Both the position numbers and the translations under genes were made by a program. From Lentisphaerota bacterium (GTDB lineage: Bacteria > Verrucomicrobiota > Kiritimatiellia > CAIQIC01 > JAGNIJ01): a stretch of 64,000 nt of DNA. Location of the stretch: NCBI GenBank assembly GCA_052033915.1, contig JBPOJF010000006.1, forward strand, positions 275,544 to 339,543, in the 5' to 3' direction. Under the pieces are notes generated by a model. It was not told where the DNA came from. It saw only the letters and a list, made by a program, of their open reading frames with translations, and did not search any database. Below, piece after piece: positions 2,317 to 64,000 of this stretch. The stretch's first letter is position 1, and every line of letters begins with the position of its first letter.

Positions 2317-4522
2317 ACCGGCGGCCAAGAGCCACGCCCAGTCCGACAACAATCTGGATATGGCGGCGCGACAGTCCCTTGGGATTGTGGACCGCGACGA
2401 AGCAGATATCCTCGCTCTCCACAAACGTGAAGGAGTGCCCCTCATGGAAGACCGTCACGGAGTACGTCTCGGTCGAACTGATGTGCCGCATGTAATGTTT
2501 GACCTTCTTGAGGATCTGCGGCGCCATCGCCTGGACGCGCTCGGGCGATTCGACACGCCAGCTCGTGGCCAGCAGATCGCCGTCGCGGTGCAGAATGATG
2601 CATCCCTCGAATCCCGCAATCTGCCTGAACTTCTCCGCGACATCCTCCAGGCGCGGATGCTTCCCGCTCCACCGGCCCAACAGTTCGTCCACCAAGGCCA
2701 GTTGGCCGTACTTCTCCTCGAGCCATGGCTGGCCGGTGATCCTCTCGTAAATCTTCTCGCCGATACCCGGAACACGGCCCAGATCGTAGAGTCCGAAGAA
2801 GGGGCCGTGCTCCTTCCGGTTCTCCACGATCCGGTGGGCCATCGCATCGCCGATTCCATCGATCACACGCGTCAACTCCTCGGCAGTAGCCTGGTTCAAA
2901 TCCAACCCTCTTAAGAGAAGCTCGGGGACACCCGACAGGTTGGCGGGCGCGTGAATCGGCGCGGCAACCGGCGGCGGCTCCACTTTCGCTACGGGGGGTT
3001 GTGCCGGCGGCATGGCGACCGGCGCAGGCTTCTCCACTTTCGCCGCGGGCGGTTGCGGCGGCGGAGCCGCCGTGCTGCCGGCAACCAGATCCATCGGCAT
3101 GAACTTCTTCGGGGCCGGACCGCCAAAAGCCACGGGCGCTTCGACCGGCGGAGCCGTGGGCGCAACGGGTTTGGGTGCAGGCGCAACCGGCGCAGGGGCA
3201 GCGGGCTTGGGCACCGGTGCGATTGGCGCTACCGGCGGGGGCGCGGGCTTGGACACCGTCGGTGTGGGAGCATCGGGTTTTGGCGCGGGCGCGATCGGTG
3301 CGGACGGCGGAGGCGCAGGCTTGGATACCGCCGGCGCGGGAGCATCGGGTTTTGGCGCGGGCGCGATCGGTGCGGACGGCGGAGGCGTGGGCTTGGACAC
3401 CGCCGGTGTGGGAGCAACGGGTTTTGGCGCAGGCGCGGGCTTGGACGCAGCCTGCGCGGGAGCCGGTTCCGCGAGCTTGAACAAGTCGGGCAAATCATGA
3501 ACGGCCGACTTCGTGGGCACTTCGGCGGTTCGTTTCTTCAATTCATCCGGCGGAATGGCCGCGACCACAATCGATAACGGCAAGGTGACAAGTTCTTCGG
3601 AATCCGCCTTGGCGCCGGCGGAGAGATACGTCTTGGGAACAGCCGCCAGCAATTTGTTCATCGGCAACTTGACGGAGCCTTTCGCAAGCTGTTCAAAGAT
3701 CTCGTCCATTACGACATCCACCCTGGCATCCGGTGGAACCATCGCCGACTTGAATGTCGAGGGCAGCACGGCCTTCAACTCGGAGATCTTCAGGTTCAGC
3801 GTGACGGATTCCGCGGGCTTCGCAGTCGAAGCCGCGGGTTTTTCCGCCGCGGATGCCGATGCGGCTGCGGGCGCTGCCGGAGCGGCGGAGGGGCTGACCT
3901 TGAAGAGGTTCGGAAGTTCAGACGCGATCCGGTCCTGCCGGATGCTGCCGGTTCGCTTCTTCAACTCCGCCGGATCAACGGCGGCGACCACTGCGGCCAG
4001 CGGCAGCAGAACCTTCATCTCGCTCTTGGTTTCGGCGGGATTGGCGAGGTACTGCCGGGGAACACCGGCCAACAGGTAGCCCAGCGTTGTTTCGATCTTC
4101 CCCTTGGCCATCTGATCGAACAAATCCTCGATCACCACGTCCGCCTTCTCTCCCGATACCGCCTTGGCATCCACAAAGGAAGAGGGAACCACCTCGGCGA
4201 TATCGCGAAGGCTCATGGCCACCGTCTGAAGGCGATCCGAAGACCCGGAGTCATCGGAAGGCGGCACCACCGAGGATTCGGCCATCAGAGTTTCGATCTG
4301 CTGAAGAGCCGCGACAATTTCCTCCAATTGCATCGGCTTTTCACGCGGCGGAGGGGGCGCGCTCACAGCGGTTTTTTGGGTGGAAGGCGCAGCAACCTGC
4401 GGCGGAGGCGCCGTCACGGGAGCCGCAGGAGCACGAGACTCCTTGGGGTCCTCTTTCTTCTCCGCGCGTCCTTTGAAGATGCTTCCAAACAGGGCCATTT
4501 TTCCCGCCTGAGAGAGGCTCAC
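2294..4522 (-). CDS. Proline-rich multi-domain scaffold protein. It has a duplicated approximately 100-aa module, a ComEA-like helix-hairpin-helix, and a C-terminal Roadblock/LC7 (MglB/MglC-like) domain
   Basis: 742 aa. Two internal repeats are VPSSFVDAKAVSGEKADVVIEDLFDQMAKGKIETTLGYLLAGVP... and LPSTFKSAMVPPDARVDVVMDEIFEQLAKGSVKLPMNKLLAAVP.... A 3x Pro-rich repeat (APAPKPDAPAPAVSKPAPPPSAPI) follows. The HhH segment reads LNQATAEELTRVIDGIGDAMAHRIVENRKEHGPFFGLYDLGRVPGIGEKIYERITG. The C-terminal segment EGCIILHRDGDLLATSW...YSVTVFHEGHSFTFVESEDICFVAVHNP fits the Roadblock fold pattern. Confidence 0.65.
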   Translation of the reverse strand: MSLSQAGKMALFGSIFKGRAEKKEDPKESRAPAAPVTAPPPQVAAPSTQKTAVSAPPPPREKPMQLEEIVAALQQIETLMAESSVVPPSDDSGSSDRLQTVAMSLRDIAEVVPSSFVDAKAVSGEKADVVIEDLFDQMAKGKIETTLGYLLAGVPRQYLANPAETKSEMKVLLPLAAVVAAVDPAELKKRTGSIRQDRIASELPNLFKVSPSAAPAAPAAASASAAEKPAASTAKPAESVTLNLKISELKAVLPSTFKSAMVPPDARVDVVMDEIFEQLAKGSVKLPMNKLLAAVPKTYLSAGAKADSEELVTLPLSIVVAAIPPDELKKRTAEVPTKSAVHDLPDLFKLAEPAPAQAASKPAPAPKPVAPTPAVSKPTPPPSAPIAPAPKPDAPAPAVSKPAPPPSAPIAPAPKPDAPTPTVSKPAPPPVAPIAPVPKPAAPAPVAPAPKPVAPTAPPVEAPVAFGGPAPKKFMPMDLVAGSTAAPPPQPPAAKVEKPAPVAMPPAQPPVAKVEPPPVAAPIHAPANLSGVPELLLRGLDLNQATAEELTRVIDGIGDAMAHRIVENRKEHGPFFGLYDLGRVPGIGEKIYERITGQPWLEEKYGQLALVDELLGRWSGKHPRLEDVAEKFRQIAGFEGCIILHRDGDLLATSWRVESPERVQAMAPQILKKVKHYMRHISSTETYSVTVFHEGHSFTFVESEDICFVAVHNPKGLSRRHIQIVVGLGVALGRRFSGYRGA
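3178..3450. repeat. Approximately 72-bp tandem repeat (about 3.5 copies) encoding the Pro/Ala-rich linker of the scaffold protein
   Basis: Units begin near 3245, 3317 and 3389 (gggcttggacaccg..cggtgtgggagcatcgggttttggcgcgggcgcgatcggtgcggacggcggaggcg). A degenerate copy sits at 3178-3244. The repeat is in frame on the minus strand. Confidence 0.7.
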
Positions 4523-19386: not shown

Positions 19387-20034
19387 ATGAAATATGCCGT
19401 CATGATCGTAACCGCATTCTGTTGCTTGACCGTAGCTCATGCCGACCTGGTCATCACCGAGGTCATGTCCGCCTCCTCTCACACGAACAGCGCGGCCAAT
19501 GGCGACTGGTGGGAGTTGTACAATTCAGGCGCAGTCGCCATCGACCTGACCCCCTACTCCTGGGACGACAACAGCGCGGCCCCCGGTTCGGCCGACTTCA
19601 ATGGCCTGACGATTGGCGCTGGAGAAGCGATCATCATCTGCCAGGAAACCATCGGGGCAGAGCAAGCCTGGAAGGACCTGTGGGGCCTGTCGAGCGTCAC
19701 GGTGGTTAACCTTGGCAACACCAAATTCCAGAACTTCAGCAGCAGCGGCGACGAGATTCACATTTATGACGCATCGTCGAATGAGGTCACCTCGGTGACC
19801 TTCGGCGCAGCAACTGCCGGGTTCTCTTTCGCGTGGGATGCAGCCGGCAATTCCCTGGGGTTGAGCGTCAACGGCGTGAACGGCGCATTTCAGGCAACAG
19901 CGGCCGCGGGCGGCGGCCCGGATATCGCGTCACCGGGCGCAGTGGTCATTCCCGAACCCGGCACCCTCGCCTTGCTGGGCTTGAGCGGTCTTCTTGTACT
20001 CTGCCGGCGCTTTTCCCGTCCGCCATGGAGTTGA
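19387..20034 (+). CDS. PEP-CTERM-anchored surface protein with a lamin-tail domain (LTD)
   Basis: A signal peptide is followed by ITEVMSA...NGDWWELYN (LTD hallmark). The C-terminus reads VIPEPGTLALLGLSGLLVLCRR, which is PEP motif + TM + Arg-rich tail, i.e. an exosortase sorting signal. A GAGGAAG ribosome-binding site precedes the ATG. Confidence 0.8.
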   Translation: MKYAVMIVTAFCCLTVAHADLVITEVMSASSHTNSAANGDWWELYNSGAVAIDLTPYSWDDNSAAPGSADFNGLTIGAGEAIIICQETIGAEQAWKDLWGLSSVTVVNLGNTKFQNFSSSGDEIHIYDASSNEVTSVTFGAATAGFSFAWDAAGNSLGLSVNGVNGAFQATAAAGGGPDIASPGAVVIPEPGTLALLGLSGLLVLCRRFSRPPWS

Positions 20035-21725: not shown

Positions 21726-21790
21726 TTCCAACGATTGGAAGAACGCGCCCGCGTTTTTCCAAGGGTTGGAAGAAAAGCCTTTTTTGGAAG
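21726..21790. promoter_or_regulatory. Divergent-promoter operator cluster. Two 15-bp palindromes TTCCAA-N3-TTGGAA (21726-21740, 21757-21771) sit 31 bp apart. A GC hairpin AACGCG-cc-CGCGTT lies between them, and a downstream TTGGAAG-AAAAGcCTTTT-TTGGAAG follows
   Basis: Read directly. The cluster lies between the CrtI-like gene (minus) and the glycan operon (plus). The same palindrome pair with the same spacing recurs at 61982-62027. Confidence 0.5.
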
Positions 21791-57962: not shown

Positions 57963-58532
57963 CTACCAATTCTGACCGTAGCCGAAACCGAGGGTCCAGT
58001 AATCGCCGACCGCCTCGACGGCGCTCCAGGTCCGGCGCGCGTACACCTCGAAGAAATGGAAACCGCCGGACAGCGACACCCTCACCCCGCCCTCCACATG
58101 CCCCGCCCAGGTTGACTCGACGCGCTCCTCCTCCCGAAGCTTGTTCCGGTCCTCCTCATCGCTGTCAAACAGGTAATTGTAACTGGCGCCGGCGCCCGCG
58201 TACGGAGCGAACCGCCTGTGCGGCATGATCCGAAGAATCATCCCCACCCCGCCGAACGTGGAGTCGATCCGGTCGTGCCGCAACGTGTTCAGGAAGAACT
58301 GGCCGATGACCGGCGTGTTGACGAGCCAGGTCGCGTCCTCGAAGCCGATTCCGTAAACGCCGTCCTGCGGACTCCCCTGGACGCTGAAGCTCATCCCGCC
58401 GGGCGCCTCGTAATCCTTGACATCGTAGGCGAACCCGCGCAACGACGCCAGGCCGACCGCCAGCATAAGCAGGATGAATCGGCTCGCCTGGGAAGATCCG
58501 CCACTCATGATCCACGACCGAATATGATTCAC
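57963..58532 (-). CDS. Small outer-membrane beta-barrel protein (OmpW/porin-like)
   Basis: Signal peptide, alternating amphipathic beta-strands, and a C-terminal aromatic (GFGYGQNW). Confidence 0.55.
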   Translation of the reverse strand: MNHIRSWIMSGGSSQASRFILLMLAVGLASLRGFAYDVKDYEAPGGMSFSVQGSPQDGVYGIGFEDATWLVNTPVIGQFFLNTLRHDRIDSTFGGVGMILRIMPHRRFAPYAGAGASYNYLFDSDEEDRNKLREEERVESTWAGHVEGGVRVSLSGGFHFFEVYARRTWSAVEAVGDYWTLGFGYGQNW

Positions 58533-58857: not shown

Positions 58858-61035
58858 ATGACGATCGCAAGACATGACGCCATCATGGCGGTGACCAACT
58901 ACAAGCCGTTCGAGAAGCCGCTGAATTTCTCGAAGACCCCGTCGAACAAACTTTTCGGCGCGAACGTCTTCAGCGACGCGGTGATGAAGAAGCGTCTGCC
59001 GGAGAAGGTGTACAAGGCGGTCCGGAAGACAATCGACCGCGGCGCGAAACTGGACGTCTCCGTCGCGGACATCGTCGCCAAGGCGATGCGCGACTGGGCC
59101 ATCGAGAAGGGCGCGACGCACTACGCGCACGTTTTCTACCCGCTGACCGGCCTGACCGCCGAGAAGCACGACAGCTTCCTCGATCCCGACGGGAAGGACG
59201 GCATGATCGCCGCGTTCTCCGGCAAGCAACTGATTCAGGGCGAGCCGGATGCCTCCAGCTTCCCCTCCGGCGGCATTCGCGCCACGTTCGAGGCGCGGGG
59301 CTACACCGCCTGGGACGTGACCAGCCCGGCGTACATCCTGGAGAACCCGAACGGAACGACGCTCTGCATCCCGACCGCGTTCTGCTCGTGGACGGGCGAG
59401 GCGCTGGACAAGAAAGTTCCCCTGCTCCGCTCGATGCAGGCCCTCAACGAACAGGCGCAGAGGATCCTGGCGCTGTTCGGGCACAAGAACCCCGGGCTCA
59501 TCCATTCCACGGCGGGCTGCGAGCAGGAGTATTTCCTGATCGACCGGAACTTCTTCTTCGCGCGGCCGGACCTGATCAACGCGGGCCGCACCCTCTTCGG
59601 CGCCAAGCCGCCCAAGGGCCAGGAGATGGAAGACCAGTACTTCGGCGCCATCCCCGAGCGCGTGCTGGCCTGCATGCTCGAGGTGGAACGCGAGCTCTAC
59701 AAGCTGGGCGTGCCGGTCAAGACGCGCCACAACGAGGTCGCTCCGGCGCAGTACGAACTCGCGCCCGTGTTCGAGACCTCGAACCTGGCGACGGACCACC
59801 AGTACCTGACGATGATCATGCTGCAGCGCGTGGCCCAGAAGTACGGCATGACCTGCCTGCTCCACGAGAAACCGTTCGCCGGCATCAACGGGTCCGGCAA
59901 ACACCTGAACTGGTCCCTCGGCACGAGCACGCAGAACCTGCTGTCGCCCGGCAAGACCCCGCACAGCAACGCGCAGTTCCTCGTGTTCTGCGCCGCCGTC
60001 ATCCGCGCCGTCCACATGAACGCGATTCTCCTGCGCGGCGCCGTCGCCCACGCGGGCAACGACCACCGGCTCGGCGCGAACGAAGCGCCCCCGACCATCA
60101 TCTCGATCTACCTCGGCGACCCGCTCACGGACATCTTCGAGCAGATCGCCGGAGGCAGCGCGAAGAACGCCAAGAAGCAGCCCGGCGTGCTGTCGGTCGG
60201 CGTGGACACCCTTCCGCCCCTGCCGAAGGACGCGGGCGACCGCAACCGCACGAGCCCGTTTGCCTTCACCGGGAACAAGTTCGAGTTCCGCGCGGTCGGC
60301 TCCAGCCAGTCCGTCGCCGGTCCGCTCGTGATCCTGAACACGATCGTCGCCGAGTCGCTCGACTACATCGCCACGGAGCTCGAATCCAGGACGAAGGGCG
60401 ACCGGAAGAAACTGAACGGCGCCATCCAGGAAGTGCTCCGGCAGATCATGAAGGAGCACGGCTCGATCATCTTCAACGGCGACAACTACACCGAGGCCTG
60501 GCAGCAGGAAGCCGCGAAGCGCGGCCTGCCCAACCTGCGCAACACGGTCGACGCCGTCGCCGCGATGGACAGGCCGCAGTTTGCCAAACTCATGGCGAAG
60601 TACAACGTCCTGTCGGAGCGCGAATTCAAGAGCCGCAACGAGATCTACCTGGAGCGCTATGTGAAGGAAATCGCCATCGAGAGCAAGCTCACCTTCCGCA
60701 TCGCGAAGACGATGATCTTCCCCGCGGCGCTCGACTACCAGATCAAGCTGGTCACGTCATCCGTCCGCCTGAAGTCCATGGGCAAGGAGCACTGCACATC
60801 GGTACTCGATGAACTCAACGATCACATGGCCCGGTTGCAGAACGAGATGGCCCATCTGGATTCAACCATCCATCACGAGCATACAGGCAGCGTCCTCGAC
60901 CACGCGAAGTACATGCGCGACACGGTCCTCCCGGCCATGCGCGCCGTGCGCGAGACGTGCGACAAGCTCGAGGGCATCGTGTCCGACGAACTGTGGCCGC
61001 TCCCGACGTACCAGGAAATCCTCTTCATCAAATAA
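58858..61035 (+). CDS. Glutamine synthetase type III (GSIII)
   Basis: 725 aa with GSIII-specific N-terminal region and the GS catalytic core ([41 protein letters not shown]). Confidence 0.85.
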
Positions 61036-61185
61036 CACCCGCAAACCCAAGAGGAAAGACGGCGGGAAAGCCGAATGACGGATGCCTGATGAATGGCCGG
61101 GCATTCGACAATTCGACCCTCATGAGTCATTCATGGGCCCAATTACCCCATTGTCCTGCCCCTGCCGCCATGTTACATTTTTGTC

Positions 61186-63162
61186 ATGCAAGACACCGTT
61201 GTAGCGCTGGTCCAAGCCAATACGACTGTGGGGGCGTTGAAGGGCAACGCGGAAAAGATCGTGGGCATGGCGCGCGATGCGGCCAGGGCCGGCGCCTCGA
61301 TCATCGTCTTTCCCGAACTGGCCCTTTCCGGCTATCCTCCGGAAGACTTGGTCCTGAAGAAGCATTTTTTGAACGACTGCATGGAATCCCTCGAGCGGCT
61401 CGCGGGCGAGGTTCCGAAGGACCGGGCGGTCATCGTCGGCGCGCCCCGCTTCGTTGACGGAAAGGCATTCAACGCGGCGGCGATCTTCCACGGCGGAAAG
61501 CGTGTCGCGTTCTACCGCAAGATCGCGCTGCCGAACGACCGCGTGTTCGACGAGAAGCGCGTCTTCGCGCCCGGCGACAAGGCCCTCGTCCTCAACCTCG
61601 GCGGCGCGCGCATCGGAATCCACATCTGCGAGGACTCCTGGATGCCGCCCGAAACGCCGCGCGCCGCGCTCGCGCCGATGGCGTTGGACGCGGTCGTCAA
61701 CCTCTCCGCGTCGCCGTATCATCGCGGCCGGCTCGGCCGGCGAGAAGACGCGCTGGCGCGGACAGCGGCGCTCGTGAAGGCCCCCCTGCTCTGCTGCAAT
61801 CTCGTCGGCGGCCAGGACGAATTGGTCTTTGACGGCGCCAGTTTCGCCGTCGGGCCGGACGGGAACCTGCTGGCGCGCGCCCGGCGGTTCGAGGAGGAAA
61901 TTCTGTACGTCAAGCTGCCCGTCGGCAGGTCGGAAGCCGGCCGCAACGAACCGAGGCCCGCCGACGTCGAAGTCGCGGATCTTCCAACCCTTGGAAAAAA
62001 TCCGCCTGAAATTTCCAACCCTTGGAAACCTTCCGTCGCGCCGGTTTTGGACGACCCGGCCGAGGTGTACTCGGCGCTCAAACTGGGCCTGCGGGACTAC
62101 GTCATTAAAAACGGGTTCCGCAAGGTGGTCGTTGCGCTCAGCGGCGGCCTGGATTCCGCCTTGGTCGCCGCGCTCGCGGCGGACGCATTGGGAAGCCGGC
62201 GCGTCGAAGGCGTCACGATGCCTTCCCAGTTCTCGTCCAAGGAGACGTTGAGCGACGCCGTGCTGACCGCGCGGCGCCTCGGCATCGACTGCAGGACCGT
62301 CCCGATCCGGAACCTGCAGGACACGTATCTGGCCGAACTCTCGCCCCTGTGGGCAGGCCGGGCGCCGGACATCACGGAGGAGAATCTCCAGGCGCGAATC
62401 CGCGGCAACATCGTCATGGCCCTCTCCAACAAGTTCGGCTGGCTGGTGCTGACCACGGGCAACAAGAGCGAGCTGGCCACGGGGTACTGCACGCTGTACG
62501 GCGACATGGCCGGGGGGTTCGCCGTGCTCAAGGATATTCCCAAGACCCTCGTGTTCGAACTCGCCCGGTGGCGCAATCGTCAATCGAAGTCGCCGATCAT
62601 TCCGCCCTCGACTATCGCGCGCCCTCCGTCGGCCGAACTGCGGCCGGACCAGAAGGACAGTGACTCGCTTCCGCCCTACGAACTGCTCGATCCGATTCTC
62701 GAGCGGTACATCGAGCGCGACTGGGGGCCAGAGGAAATCATCGCGGACGGGTTCGATCCCGCGGTCGTCCGGCGCGTGGTCCGGCTGGTGGACTGTAACG
62801 AATACAAGCGCCGGCAGAGCGCGCCGGGCATCACGATCACCCCCAAAGCCTTCGGACGGGACCGCCGTATGCCGATCACCAATCGGTACGGAGACCACCG
62901 CGCCGTCCTCGTCGCCGAGGACAACGTGATTCACCCCTGCCGCCTCCCGCCCACTTTACAGACGGCGGAGGCCGCCGGGTCCACACCCCGTGGCGACCTG
63001 AAAGGAATGGTCGATGCGTACGAACGCGACTTGATCCAGGATGCCCTCAAATCGTCCCGCGGGAATATCGCCGCCGCTGCACGCGCCCTCAGCACCACCC
63101 AGCGCATCCTCGGCTATAAGATCCGGAAGCTCAAAATCGATCCCAAGAAGCATTCTACATAA
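61186..63162 (+). CDS. nadE: Glutamine-dependent NAD+ synthetase (N-terminal CN-hydrolase domain + NAD synthetase domain) with an unusual approximately 90-aa C-terminal extension ending in a Fis-type (HTH_8) helix-turn-helix
   Basis: The nitrilase domain shows FPELALSGYPPEDL and ICEDSW. The synthetase domain shows VVALSGGLDSALVAAL, the P-loop SGGxDS, and ...ITNRYGD, the usual C-terminus. It then continues without a stop through HRAVLVAEDN...DAYERDLIQDALKSSRGNIAAAARALSTTQRILGYKIRKLKIDPKK. Confidence 0.8.
   Translation: MQDTVVALVQANTTVGALKGNAEKIVGMARDAARAGASIIVFPELALSGYPPEDLVLKKHFLNDCMESLERLAGEVPKDRAVIVGAPRFVDGKAFNAAAIFHGGKRVAFYRKIALPNDRVFDEKRVFAPGDKALVLNLGGARIGIHICEDSWMPPETPRAALAPMALDAVVNLSASPYHRGRLGRREDALARTAALVKAPLLCCNLVGGQDELVFDGASFAVGPDGNLLARARRFEEEILYVKLPVGRSEAGRNEPRPADVEVADLPTLGKNPPEISNPWKPSVAPVLDDPAEVYSALKLGLRDYVIKNGFRKVVVALSGGLDSALVAALAADALGSRRVEGVTMPSQFSSKETLSDAVLTARRLGIDCRTVPIRNLQDTYLAELSPLWAGRAPDITEENLQARIRGNIVMALSNKFGWLVLTTGNKSELATGYCTLYGDMAGGFAVLKDIPKTLVFELARWRNRQSKSPIIPPSTIARPPSAELRPDQKDSDSLPPYELLDPILERYIERDWGPEEIIADGFDPAVVRRVVRLVDCNEYKRRQSAPGITITPKAFGRDRRMPITNRYGDHRAVLVAEDNVIHPCRLPPTLQTAEAAGSTPRGDLKGMVDAYERDLIQDALKSSRGNIAAAARALSTTQRILGYKIRKLKIDPKKHST
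61982..62027. repeat. Two identical 15-bp palindromes TTCCAACCCTTGGAA (61982-61996 and 62013-62027), 31 bp apart, embedded in frame in the inter-domain linker of nadE
   Basis: Read directly. They encode LPTLGK and ISNPWKP in different codon phases. The same motif pair recurs at 21726-21771. Confidence 0.6.
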
Positions 63163-63286
63163 TGTTTGTTGTTCGGTCCGGACATGAAAAGCTCGATCAG
63201 AGGCCGATCTTCTTGACGGACGCTAATTATTCCCTAACATAACGGCCACATGGAACGCGAGCGCGTTCCCGCAGGAGGAAAAAGAG

Positions 63287-64000
63287 ATGATGAGAGCAAG
63301 CAAGATGATGATAGCGGTTCTGTGCATAGCCTCTTTGTTGCCGGCCACTCTTCAGGCGGCGGAGGCAAACCTGGATTTGTCCGTAAACTCCGCGTACATC
63401 TGGCGCGGCCAGGTTTTGAACGATGAACCCGTGTTCCAGCCTACCGTCACGGTGTCGGCGGAAAACGGGCTTTCATTCGAGACGTGGGCGAACTGGAACC
63501 TGACCGACAGCCTGGGCAAATCCACCGAGCACGATTTCAACGAAATCGATCTCACGGTGAGCTACGATATCCCGGTGGAAGTCGTGGACGTGACGGTAGG
63601 CGTGTCCGAGTACGCTTTTCCGAACCAGACCGAGCCCAGCACGCGCGAGTTCTTCATGACGGTCGGAAAGGCAGACTTCCCGCTCTCGCCGAGCGCCTCC
63701 GTGTACTATGACTTCGAGGAAGTGGACGGATTCTACGGGACGGCTTCGATCGCTCACAGCATTGAGGCGACCAAGAAACTGACCCTCGACGCCAGCCTCT
63801 CCATCGGTATCGGCGACAGCGACTACAACAACTACTACTTCGGCATCGACGACGTCGCCCTGAACGACGGAAACGCCATGATGGGCGTTACCTACGCGTT
63901 CAACGAGTCCCTCACGGTCAGCGGCTTCGCGATGTATACGGTCCTGCTGGATTCCGACATCCGCGACGCCGCGAGCGAGAGCGACGCCTACTTCAAGAAG
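63287..64000 (+). CDS. Outer-membrane beta-barrel protein of the Gcw_chp (TIGR02001-like) family, partial (runs off the window)
   Basis: A GGAGG ribosome-binding site and a signal peptide (MMRASKMMIAVLCIASLLPATLQAA) are followed by LDLSVNSAYIWRGQVLNDEPVFQPTVTVSAENGLSFETWANW...NEIDLTVSYD. That matches the family's N-terminal pattern from memory. Confidence 0.6.
   Translation, partial: MMRASKMMIAVLCIASLLPATLQAAEANLDLSVNSAYIWRGQVLNDEPVFQPTVTVSAENGLSFETWANWNLTDSLGKSTEHDFNEIDLTVSYDIPVEVVDVTVGVSEYAFPNQTEPSTREFFMTVGKADFPLSPSASVYYDFEEVDGFYGTASIAHSIEATKKLTLDASLSIGIGDSDYNNYYFGIDDVALNDGNAMMGVTYAFNESLTVSGFAMYTVLLDSDIRDAASESDAYFKK

Follow-up and report, generated by a model that had tools for sequence, protein, structure and literature searches.

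A palindrome pair within nadE as a conserved member of a Kiritimatiellia-wide family of helically phased DNA sites

Two perfect copies of the palindrome TTCCAACCCTTGGAA lie within the nadE gene of a Lentisphaerota bacterium, at 61982-61996 and 62013-62027, with a start-to-start distance of 31 bp. These positions refer to a stretch of 64,000 nucleotides from the assembly GCA_052033915.1 (contig JBPOJF010000006.1, positions 275,544 to 339,543 of the forward strand), which we call the window. We found that this pair is a conserved instance of a Kiritimatiellia-wide motif family, that the members of this family are phased on the DNA helix, that they are maintained as DNA in any reading frame, and that they have no link to a specific gene. 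As to the function of the motif, we give about even weight to the view that the palindromes are sites for a cooperating dimeric protein that binds double-stranded DNA (dsDNA) and has a genome-wide role.

The palindrome pair in nadE and its conservation

The nadE reading frame in the window (61186..63162, + strand) codes for 658 amino acids. Pfam assigns residues 6-251 to CN_hydrolase, residues 295-544 to NAD_synthase and, unexpectedly, residues 613-649 to an HTH_8 tail that is joined to the protein by an apparent deletion (see below). Codons 252-294 (61939..62067, + strand) form a mostly coiled linker between the glutaminase and synthetase domains, and codons 266-281 span both palindromes. The first palindrome (TTCCAAcccTTGGAA, 61982..61996, no strand assigned) starts at codon position 2 and is read in frame as L266-P-T-L-G-K271. 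The second copy of the same sequence (62013..62027, no strand assigned) starts at codon position 3 and is read as (I276)-S-N-P-W-K281. The 16 bp between them (AAAATCCGCCTGAAAT, 61997..62012, likewise unstranded) are kept in length but not in sequence among orthologues.

The original prediction, which had been made from the sequence alone, described two perfect palindromes 31 bp apart in the inter-domain linker that are read in two codon phases, and position and sequence agree with this description in both respects. The prediction also considered the linker to be about 35 residues long, normally short and unstructured. The AlphaFold model is mostly coil in this region with a confidence minimum at residues 270-273, which supports the idea of a permissive, flexible host for the pair, but the linker is not short: it comprises about 43 residues in the window, whereas the Acinetobacter enzyme with a solved structure (5kha) has about 15, and this long form is common to the whole NadE group rather than to the window only. 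Nine assemblies made independently of each other all contain this pair, and we can therefore exclude an assembly error.

To describe the conservation of the pair we compared nadE of the window with eight orthologues (67-90% protein identity), giving nine DNA sequences in all. All eight orthologous genes contain the pair at the same site and with the same 31-bp spacing; two of them have one mismatch per site, and in one the first site has decayed. Pairwise identity among the nine sequences is 94.6% at the 24 arm positions, 52% in the central triplets, 44% in the 16-bp spacer and 41% in the 30 bp upstream. Third codon positions within the arms are 89% identical, compared with a baseline of 68% for third positions where the best-conserved part of NadE has identical residues. 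The codons that make up the arms are rare in this genome, in which the G+C content of third codon positions is 0.83: CCA and CCT account for 2.6 and 6% of proline codons, CTT for 11% of leucine codons and GGA for 13% of glycine codons. Given the peptides, the joint probability of the observed codons under the codon usage of the genome is about 1e-8. From the third positions and from these forced rare codons we conclude that the DNA is conserved and not the peptide, as the prediction had proposed. Orthologues that keep the peptides without the palindromes would have spoken for a codon coincidence; the orthologues examined here retain the palindromes. The persistence of the pair at one place in nine genes down to 67% protein identity indicates that it is not recent.

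At the protein level, an alignment of 24 orthologues shows 'P-T/I/M-L/I-G-K' and 'S-N/K-x-W-K' standing out in an otherwise unalignable linker. Among 120 NadE homologues, 40 contain linker peptides encoded by the motif, in varied arrangements: frame order a-c in 15 (31 bp), c-a in 10 (32 bp), a-b in one (32 bp) and a single site in 14. The nadE gene of L209 has its pair immediately after the glutaminase domain with a spacing of 32 bp, and other nadE clades have pairs at other places in the gene and in other frames.

A phased motif family in Kiritimatiellia

The prediction had noted the same pair with the same spacing elsewhere in the window. We could confirm this second pair at 21726-21771 (TTCCAACGATTGGAA at 21726-21740 and TTCCAAGGGTTGGAA at 21757-21771), again with a distance of 31 bp. 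At up to two mismatches the window contains five matches to the palindrome versus 0.07 expected; none of 100 shuffled windows reached five matches, and none of 30 shuffles produced a phased pair. We therefore reject chance as an explanation. The second pair is located in the divergent intergenic region between a gene for an FAD amine-oxidase-like protein (- strand) and an NAD-epimerase gene (+ strand), where the palindromes TTCCAAcgaTTGGAA (21726..21740) and TTCCAAgggTTGGAA (21757..21771) carry no strand of their own. The spacer of this pair (21741-21756, AACGCGccCGCGTT) is also palindromic, and an additional TTGGAA half-site follows at 21784-21789, 13 bp past the second palindrome.

With a scan for TTCCAANNNTTGGAA-N(6-36)-TTCCAANNNTTGGAA in one genome per species (185,579 species; start-to-start spacings of 21-51 bp allowed) we recovered at least 120 matching 8-kb tiles versus about 0.1 expected by chance. 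Nearly all of the tiles listed come from metagenome-assembled genomes (MAGs) labelled Kiritimatiellia, 'Lentisphaerae' or 'Verrucomicrobia'. This result supports the earlier proposal that palindrome pairs of fixed spacing form a dispersed family. We rejected a viral origin, because 2.9 million viral contigs contained only 16 matches. A literature search on the motif or on palindromic repeats of Kiritimatiellia found nothing relevant, although such papers could still exist.

Among the matches listed, start-to-start distances of 31 bp (91 cases) and 32 bp (72) predominate, followed by 21-22 bp (15) and 42-44 bp (10), and this spectrum does not change when one mismatch is allowed. From these peaks it follows that the sites are aligned on one face of B-DNA. 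Clusters contain two copies in 113 of the listed cases, three in 18, four in 11, five in one and six in three. The consensus is ttTTCCAAnSnTTGGAAaa, or aaTTTTCCAAtSaTTGGAAAAtt in its extended form, with AT-rich flanks in which T runs precede and A runs follow the palindromes. Of 165 paired sites, 163 have G or C as their centre base. Since mismatches cluster at the innermost arm bases, the core of the motif is TTCCA-N5-TGGAA. The rule for the centre base can also be read from proteins: in one frame all 85 variable residues agree with it, and in another 147 of 155 do.

Different loci have only the 6+6 arm bases and the spacing in common; their spacers are unrelated, and we observed no excess of spacer hairpins or of conserved spacer sequence over shuffles. 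Partner sites are distributed bimodally: 303 are exact, 27 have one mismatch, very few are intermediate and about 77 are absent. Some arrays contain tandem duplications of 31-bp or 62-bp units. The two sites of a pair have the same orientation in 104 cases and opposite orientations in 59, and because of this mixture we rejected REPIN-like inverted doublets as a description of the motif. A search for long-range periodicity of the clusters gave no clear signal. In some arrays with spacings of 42-66 bp (L006:1848-1928, L006:4506-4562, L020:6969-7025) the spacer holds a GC-rich palindrome (GCAGGCTGAGCCTGC or CCGGCTGAGCCGG), which is common to two different genomes and to two Mur ligase genes of one genome. 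Spacers of 42 bp are otherwise heterogeneous, and the arrays with the GC-rich palindrome may represent a composite sub-family.

We then consider where the motif occurs relative to genes. Most of the 148 clusters examined are intergenic, either between tandem genes (67), between divergent genes (23) or between convergent genes (14); a further 25 fall within called genes, in about 10 cases deep inside, and 19 lie at tile edges. Convergent cases were verified by Pfam, for example a pair between MntP and a beta-CASP nuclease, a pair between isocitrate dehydrogenase and a PATR protein, a triple between Wzy and MurJ, and a pair between UxaE and an FAD oxidoreductase. In tandem regions, clusters have a median distance of 38 bp from the upstream stop codon and 93 bp from the downstream start codon. 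The centre base shows no strong strand bias relative to transcription. All-against-all BLAST of the ORFs that flank the 148 clusters revealed, as recurrent families, only Mur ligases (in two genomes) and the expanded sulfatases. The largest arrays adjoin functionally unrelated genes, namely purM, thrC, a DAP/ornithine decarboxylase gene, a P-type ATPase gene and a sulfatase/GntR pair. No coherent regulon could be recognised among these neighbours.

The density of the motif varies between genomes. A 21-kb stretch of the complete genome of cultured Tichowtungia aerotolerans (L226 = CP047593.1, 2973313-2994677) contains 11 sites with at most one mismatch versus about 0.05 expected, and all 11 are intragenic, in genes for RsmE, MnmE, epimerases and an inositol phosphatase. 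This corresponds to about 5 sites per 10 kb, whereas the window has 0.6 per 10 kb, and the GC-rich clade of the window has a density about ten-fold lower. The sequences that surround the nine nadE genes, about 74 kb in total, contain only the nadE pair and one other pair. Three transposase or insertion sequence (IS)-related genes of the T. aerotolerans stretch, a very small sample, contain no sites; the motif may accumulate only in resident DNA.

How did the pair enter nadE? The prediction interpreted it as a MITE-like element (miniature inverted-repeat transposable element) inserted into the linker, in which case the linkers of relatives should be about 50 nucleotides shorter. The alignment contradicts this idea: motif-free NadE orthologues have linkers of equal length, so that the palindromes do not account for some 50 extra nucleotides, and only the arm bases are shared between loci. 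The NadE protein of L121 (55% identity) is encoded with a pair within the structured NAD-synthase domain (L121:4175-4220) instead of the linker, and reads 'IPIFPIFGKFTDELSNHWNPEPG' in place of 'VPIRNLQDTYLAELSPLWAGRAP', residue for residue. A metagenome scan for nadE relatives returned distant genes only (up to 55% identity) and served as a control, with pairs in 1 of 80 loci. Besides nadE, in-frame pairs occur in two Mur ligase genes and in mnmE (for example L102:389-1762). Of 120 MnmE orthologues from Kiritimatiellales (69-100% identity), 105 contain motif peptides at up to three fixed positions, consisting of sites near residues 27 and 37 (31 bp apart), sites near residues 190 and 201 (32 bp apart) and a further site near residue 350. 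The length of MnmE is unaltered, with 'VFPNLGKKLDESFQTLE' where motif-free orthologues read 'VLPGIAEKLAAQTGMLE'. Judged from these alignments, the motif in MnmE and in L121 NadE arose by substitutions, without a change in length.

Possible functions and alternative explanations

The mechanism that we favour starts from the symmetry of the sites. A dsDNA-binding protein that is specific to the lineage and to the sequence would occupy each 15-bp palindrome as a dimer. Neighbouring dimers, mostly separated by three turns of the helix (31-32 bp) and less often by two or four, would share one face and may cooperate there as a tetramer or as a larger wrapped complex, with a role that would be architectural or global across the genome rather than the regulation of nadE. 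An AT-rich motif in a GC-rich genome would be confined to intergenic DNA and to unconstrained codons, for example those of the flexible NadE linker, and LPTLGK...SNPWK would be a tolerated by-product of the DNA motif. That one of the two pairs in the window resides in this linker may be understood in the same way, because an AT-rich 19-mer in a genome with 63% G+C fits only intergenic DNA or unconstrained codons. We prefer a genome-wide role over a classical operator because of the G/C centre, the convergent and intragenic positions, and the lack of a regulon.

In where it occurs and how it evolves, the motif most closely resembles HIP1 and the uptake signal sequences. HIP1 of cyanobacteria (GCGATCGC) is also a lineage-specific, strongly over-represented palindrome, found inside ORFs as well as between them and in any frame. 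Selection conserves it at orthologous positions; it has no gene-level function and is suspected to play a role in the nucleoid or in transformation (PMC5861425, PMC4390886, bioRxiv 10.1101/2024.09.10.611283). The motif described here exceeds chance more than 200-fold in the T. aerotolerans stretch and keeps its orthologous positions in nadE and mnmE. It differs from HIP1 in its length (15-19 bp versus 8 bp), in that it occurs nearly always as pairs or arrays phased by two, three or four turns, and in that it is much rarer in some members of the lineage, the genome of the window included.

The geometry of the motif resembles that of Lrp/AsnC operator arrays, for example those of BarR and of E. 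coli Lrp. BarR, an octameric protein of the Lrp type, binds four to five regularly spaced 15-bp semipalindromes that are 15-17 bp apart (PMC10201364). Like our motif, such arrays consist of 15-bp dyads about three turns apart from centre to centre, in arrays of two to six, and they are wrapped by the oligomer (PMC10201364); the spacers between our 15-bp palindromes measure 16-17 bp. Lrp/AsnC arrays are found in the promoters of defined regulons, whereas the present motif occurs anywhere: many arrays are upstream of genes, others are convergent or intragenic, and a coherent regulon is not apparent in them. The spacing of NrdR-box pairs and of the Fis sites in rRNA promoters resembles this geometry as well. 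The NrdR consensus, acaCwAtATaTwGtgt, is a different sequence, and the genes that flank our motif are not nrd genes.

Several points weigh against a cooperating binder with a genome-wide role. The binder itself is putative, and we infer its binding, its cooperativity and its role from the sites. A roughly ten-fold spread in density is not obviously what an essential architectural system would produce. The retention of the nadE pair in all nine genes of a clade in which the motif is sparse could indicate a locus-specific function. The AT-rich centre of Lrp/AsnC sites is replaced by G or C in the 163 of 165 sites mentioned above. The gene contexts of the 148 clusters were assigned with a home-made codon-model gene caller and spot-checked with Pfam, and the taxon labels of the MAGs are imprecise.

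More tentatively, we consider a genome-wide recognition system of Kiritimatiellia that has not been described before, in which a tetrameric or higher-order protein would read phased pairs for nucleoid organisation or for marking 'self' DNA in uptake or recombination. Under this reading the sites would be maintained so strongly that they overwrite the coding sequence of housekeeping genes (nadE, mnmE and the mur ligase genes), and would thereby fix short peptides such as FPxLGK, FQxLE and SNxWK.

It seems rather unlikely to us that the pair is an operator for its own locus, at which a global regulator bound in the middle of nadE would control glnN, nadE, the gene for a GAF/sigma-54 activator, amtB and glnK by way of a roadblock, by looping or through an internal or antisense promoter. 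Auxiliary operators can be intragenic, as is the case for lac O2 and gal OI. The idea retains some probability, given that all nine nadE genes of a motif-sparse clade have retained the pair, with only one other pair in about 74 kb of flanking DNA. Relatives also preserve the order of glnN, nadE, the gene for the activator (a bacterial enhancer-binding protein, bEBP), amtB and glnK, and have pairs at differing places of nadE in differing clades. However, we found no phased partner at up to three mismatches within 7 kb upstream, a region that includes the glnN and nadE promoters, and the site at 58047 (three mismatches) is isolated. There is no sigma-70-like promoter at the nadE site and no terminator-like site, with a GC-rich hairpin followed by a U tract, in 61500-62500. 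Nothing is conserved beside the arms, and the same motif occurs within unrelated genes and between convergent ones. In high-density genomes, moreover, a gene of 1.7 kb is expected to hold a pair anyway. The prediction had allowed for an operator or an intragenic regulatory site. An operator specific to nadE is disfavoured by the pairs at unrelated, convergent and housekeeping genes and by the lack of a partner in the glnN and nadE promoters, and a local regulatory side-effect of the nadE pair is conceivable.

A sigma-54 enhancer was suggested by the HTH_8 tail and by the neighbouring activator. NtrC-type enhancers, in which two dyads with a distance of about 32 bp precede a sigma-54 promoter, have the same three-turn geometry, and a GAF/sigma-54 activator with HTH_8 is encoded directly downstream of nadE in relatives. 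Matches to a sigma-54 promoter (GG-N10-GC) are not enriched near pairs in general (0.063 per kb versus 0.087 per kb elsewhere). The motif is also too widespread for one activator. We rejected the enhancer because of this lack of enrichment and because no sites were found upstream of glnN or amtB in the nadE loci examined.

It is also doubtful that the motif is an uptake or recombination signal that accumulates genome-wide through molecular drive, tolerant codons included. Uptake signal sequences (USS) of Pasteurellaceae and DNA uptake sequences (DUS) of Neisseriaceae number from hundreds to thousands per genome and arise through point mutations, within genes as well as outside them, with a preference for poorly conserved residues. 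They impose particular peptides, have no relation to the function of the gene and are missing from genes that were acquired recently (PMC2817400). Much of this description fits the present motif, which is lineage-specific, frequent and mostly intragenic in T. aerotolerans (about one site per 2 kb), arose by substitution with a preference for linkers and other poorly conserved residues, and has no tie to gene function. Partner sites that are either near-perfect or absent are consistent with such a signal, as are the three transposase or IS genes without sites, although this last observation concerns three genes. HIP1 improves transformation in a cyanobacterium (bioRxiv 10.1101/2024.09.10.611283). 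Known uptake sequences, on the other hand, are asymmetric and occur neither as helically phased pairs nor as arrays of six copies, and the nadE pair persists in the clade of the window despite a very low density.

An in-frame insertion of a mobile palindromic element of the MITE, repetitive extragenic palindrome (REP) or Rickettsia palindromic element (RPE) type is largely refuted, and we regard it as very improbable. REP sequences, their mosaic arrays (bacterial interspersed mosaic elements, BIMEs) and RPEs share with our motif that they are short palindromic repeats, often located just downstream of genes or in arrays, and RPEs occur in frame within genes. The dispersal of the motif, its frequent position just past stop codons or between convergent genes, its variable copy number between genomes, the tandem duplication of 31-bp or 62-bp units in some arrays and the spacer sequence common to two Mur ligase genes of one genome would all be compatible with such an element. 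REP, BIME and RPE repeats, however, are whole elements with a conserved interior that add extra DNA. Here the arms alone are shared; spacers and flanks are unrelated between loci, there are no conserved interior, terminal repeats or target duplications, and spacings are helical multiples instead of one element length. Comparison with empty sites in MnmE, in L121 NadE and in the NadE linkers revealed no added DNA, the orthologous position is kept down to 67% protein identity, and matches in viral contigs are as scarce as stated above. A Rickettsia element would be a conserved in-frame insert of about 100-150 bp; the unit described here measures 46 bp, has a variable spacer and originated by substitution.

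There is a slim chance that the palindromes act in RNA, as two mRNA hairpins that slow ribosomes between the domains or that bind an RNA-binding protein or RNase. Each palindrome could form a hairpin of 6-7 bp, the inter-domain position would suit co-translational pausing, and the 86-nucleotide region at the nadE pair folds better than shuffled sequences to a modest degree (z = -2.5). Yet the arm sequence is conserved rather than pairing alone, spacings of about 10.5 x n bp fit the phasing of B-DNA, and many copies are untranscribed or between convergent genes. No strong strand bias was detected, and 61700-62300 gave no Rfam match up to E = 1. Doubly mismatched partner sites are too few for covariation to be informative. 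Finally, the possibility that LPTLGK and SNPWK are functional linker peptides and the palindromes a codon accident is refuted and has next to no probability, since the peptides do recur in orthologues but one 15-mer is read in two or three frames with rare codons that are very improbable given the peptides, amino-acid variation follows the N-S-N rule of the DNA exactly, and the identical motif with identical spacing is found in non-coding DNA.

The nadE neighbourhood and implications

The closest homologues of NadE from the window are encoded in MAGs of Kiritimatiellia, Verrucomicrobia or Lentisphaerae, measure 540-640 residues and all lack HTH_8. In relatives (L201-L209) the gene order is glnN (type III glutamine synthetase), nadE, a gene for a 515-residue GAF/sigma-54 activator with HTH_8, amtB and glnK, and this nitrogen-assimilation cluster continues after glnK with genes for MipA and gltB. 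Compared with the orthologous locus L201 (90% identity), the window is missing 1,316 bp, and with them the stop codon of nadE and the GAF and AAA+ domains of the activator. As a consequence, NadE continues in frame into the activator's HTH_8 tail, with the junction at 62898/62899. This fusion is either a real deletion that inactivates a nitrogen regulator or an assembly artefact. Within 58858-64000 of the window, amtB and glnK do not directly follow the fusion; the gene that starts at 63376 has a signal-peptide-like N-terminus.

Two other features of the window are unrelated to the pair. Tandem direct repeats with a period of 72 bp (three to five copies, 79-91% identity) are located at 3156-3463 in G+C-rich and probably coding DNA. 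The ORF at 19387-20034 (+ strand) ends with a PEP-CTERM-like sorting motif (VIPEPGTLALLGLSGLLVLCRR).

If the reading of the palindromes as sites for a cooperating dsDNA-binding protein with a genome-wide role is correct, the motif would be a second clear case, after HIP1 and the uptake sequences, in which a DNA word common to a lineage takes precedence over codon usage and the choice of amino acids in conserved genes. With its dyad symmetry and its phasing by two, three or four turns, the geometry of the sites is unusually informative, and the shape of the binder can be predicted from it: a symmetric dimer should form oligomers along one face of the helix. For annotation, peptides such as FPxLGK, FQxLE and SNxWK in Kiritimatiellia proteins would have to be considered footprints of a DNA signal and not protein motifs, and the nadE pair should be annotated neither as a mobile element nor as a nadE operator.

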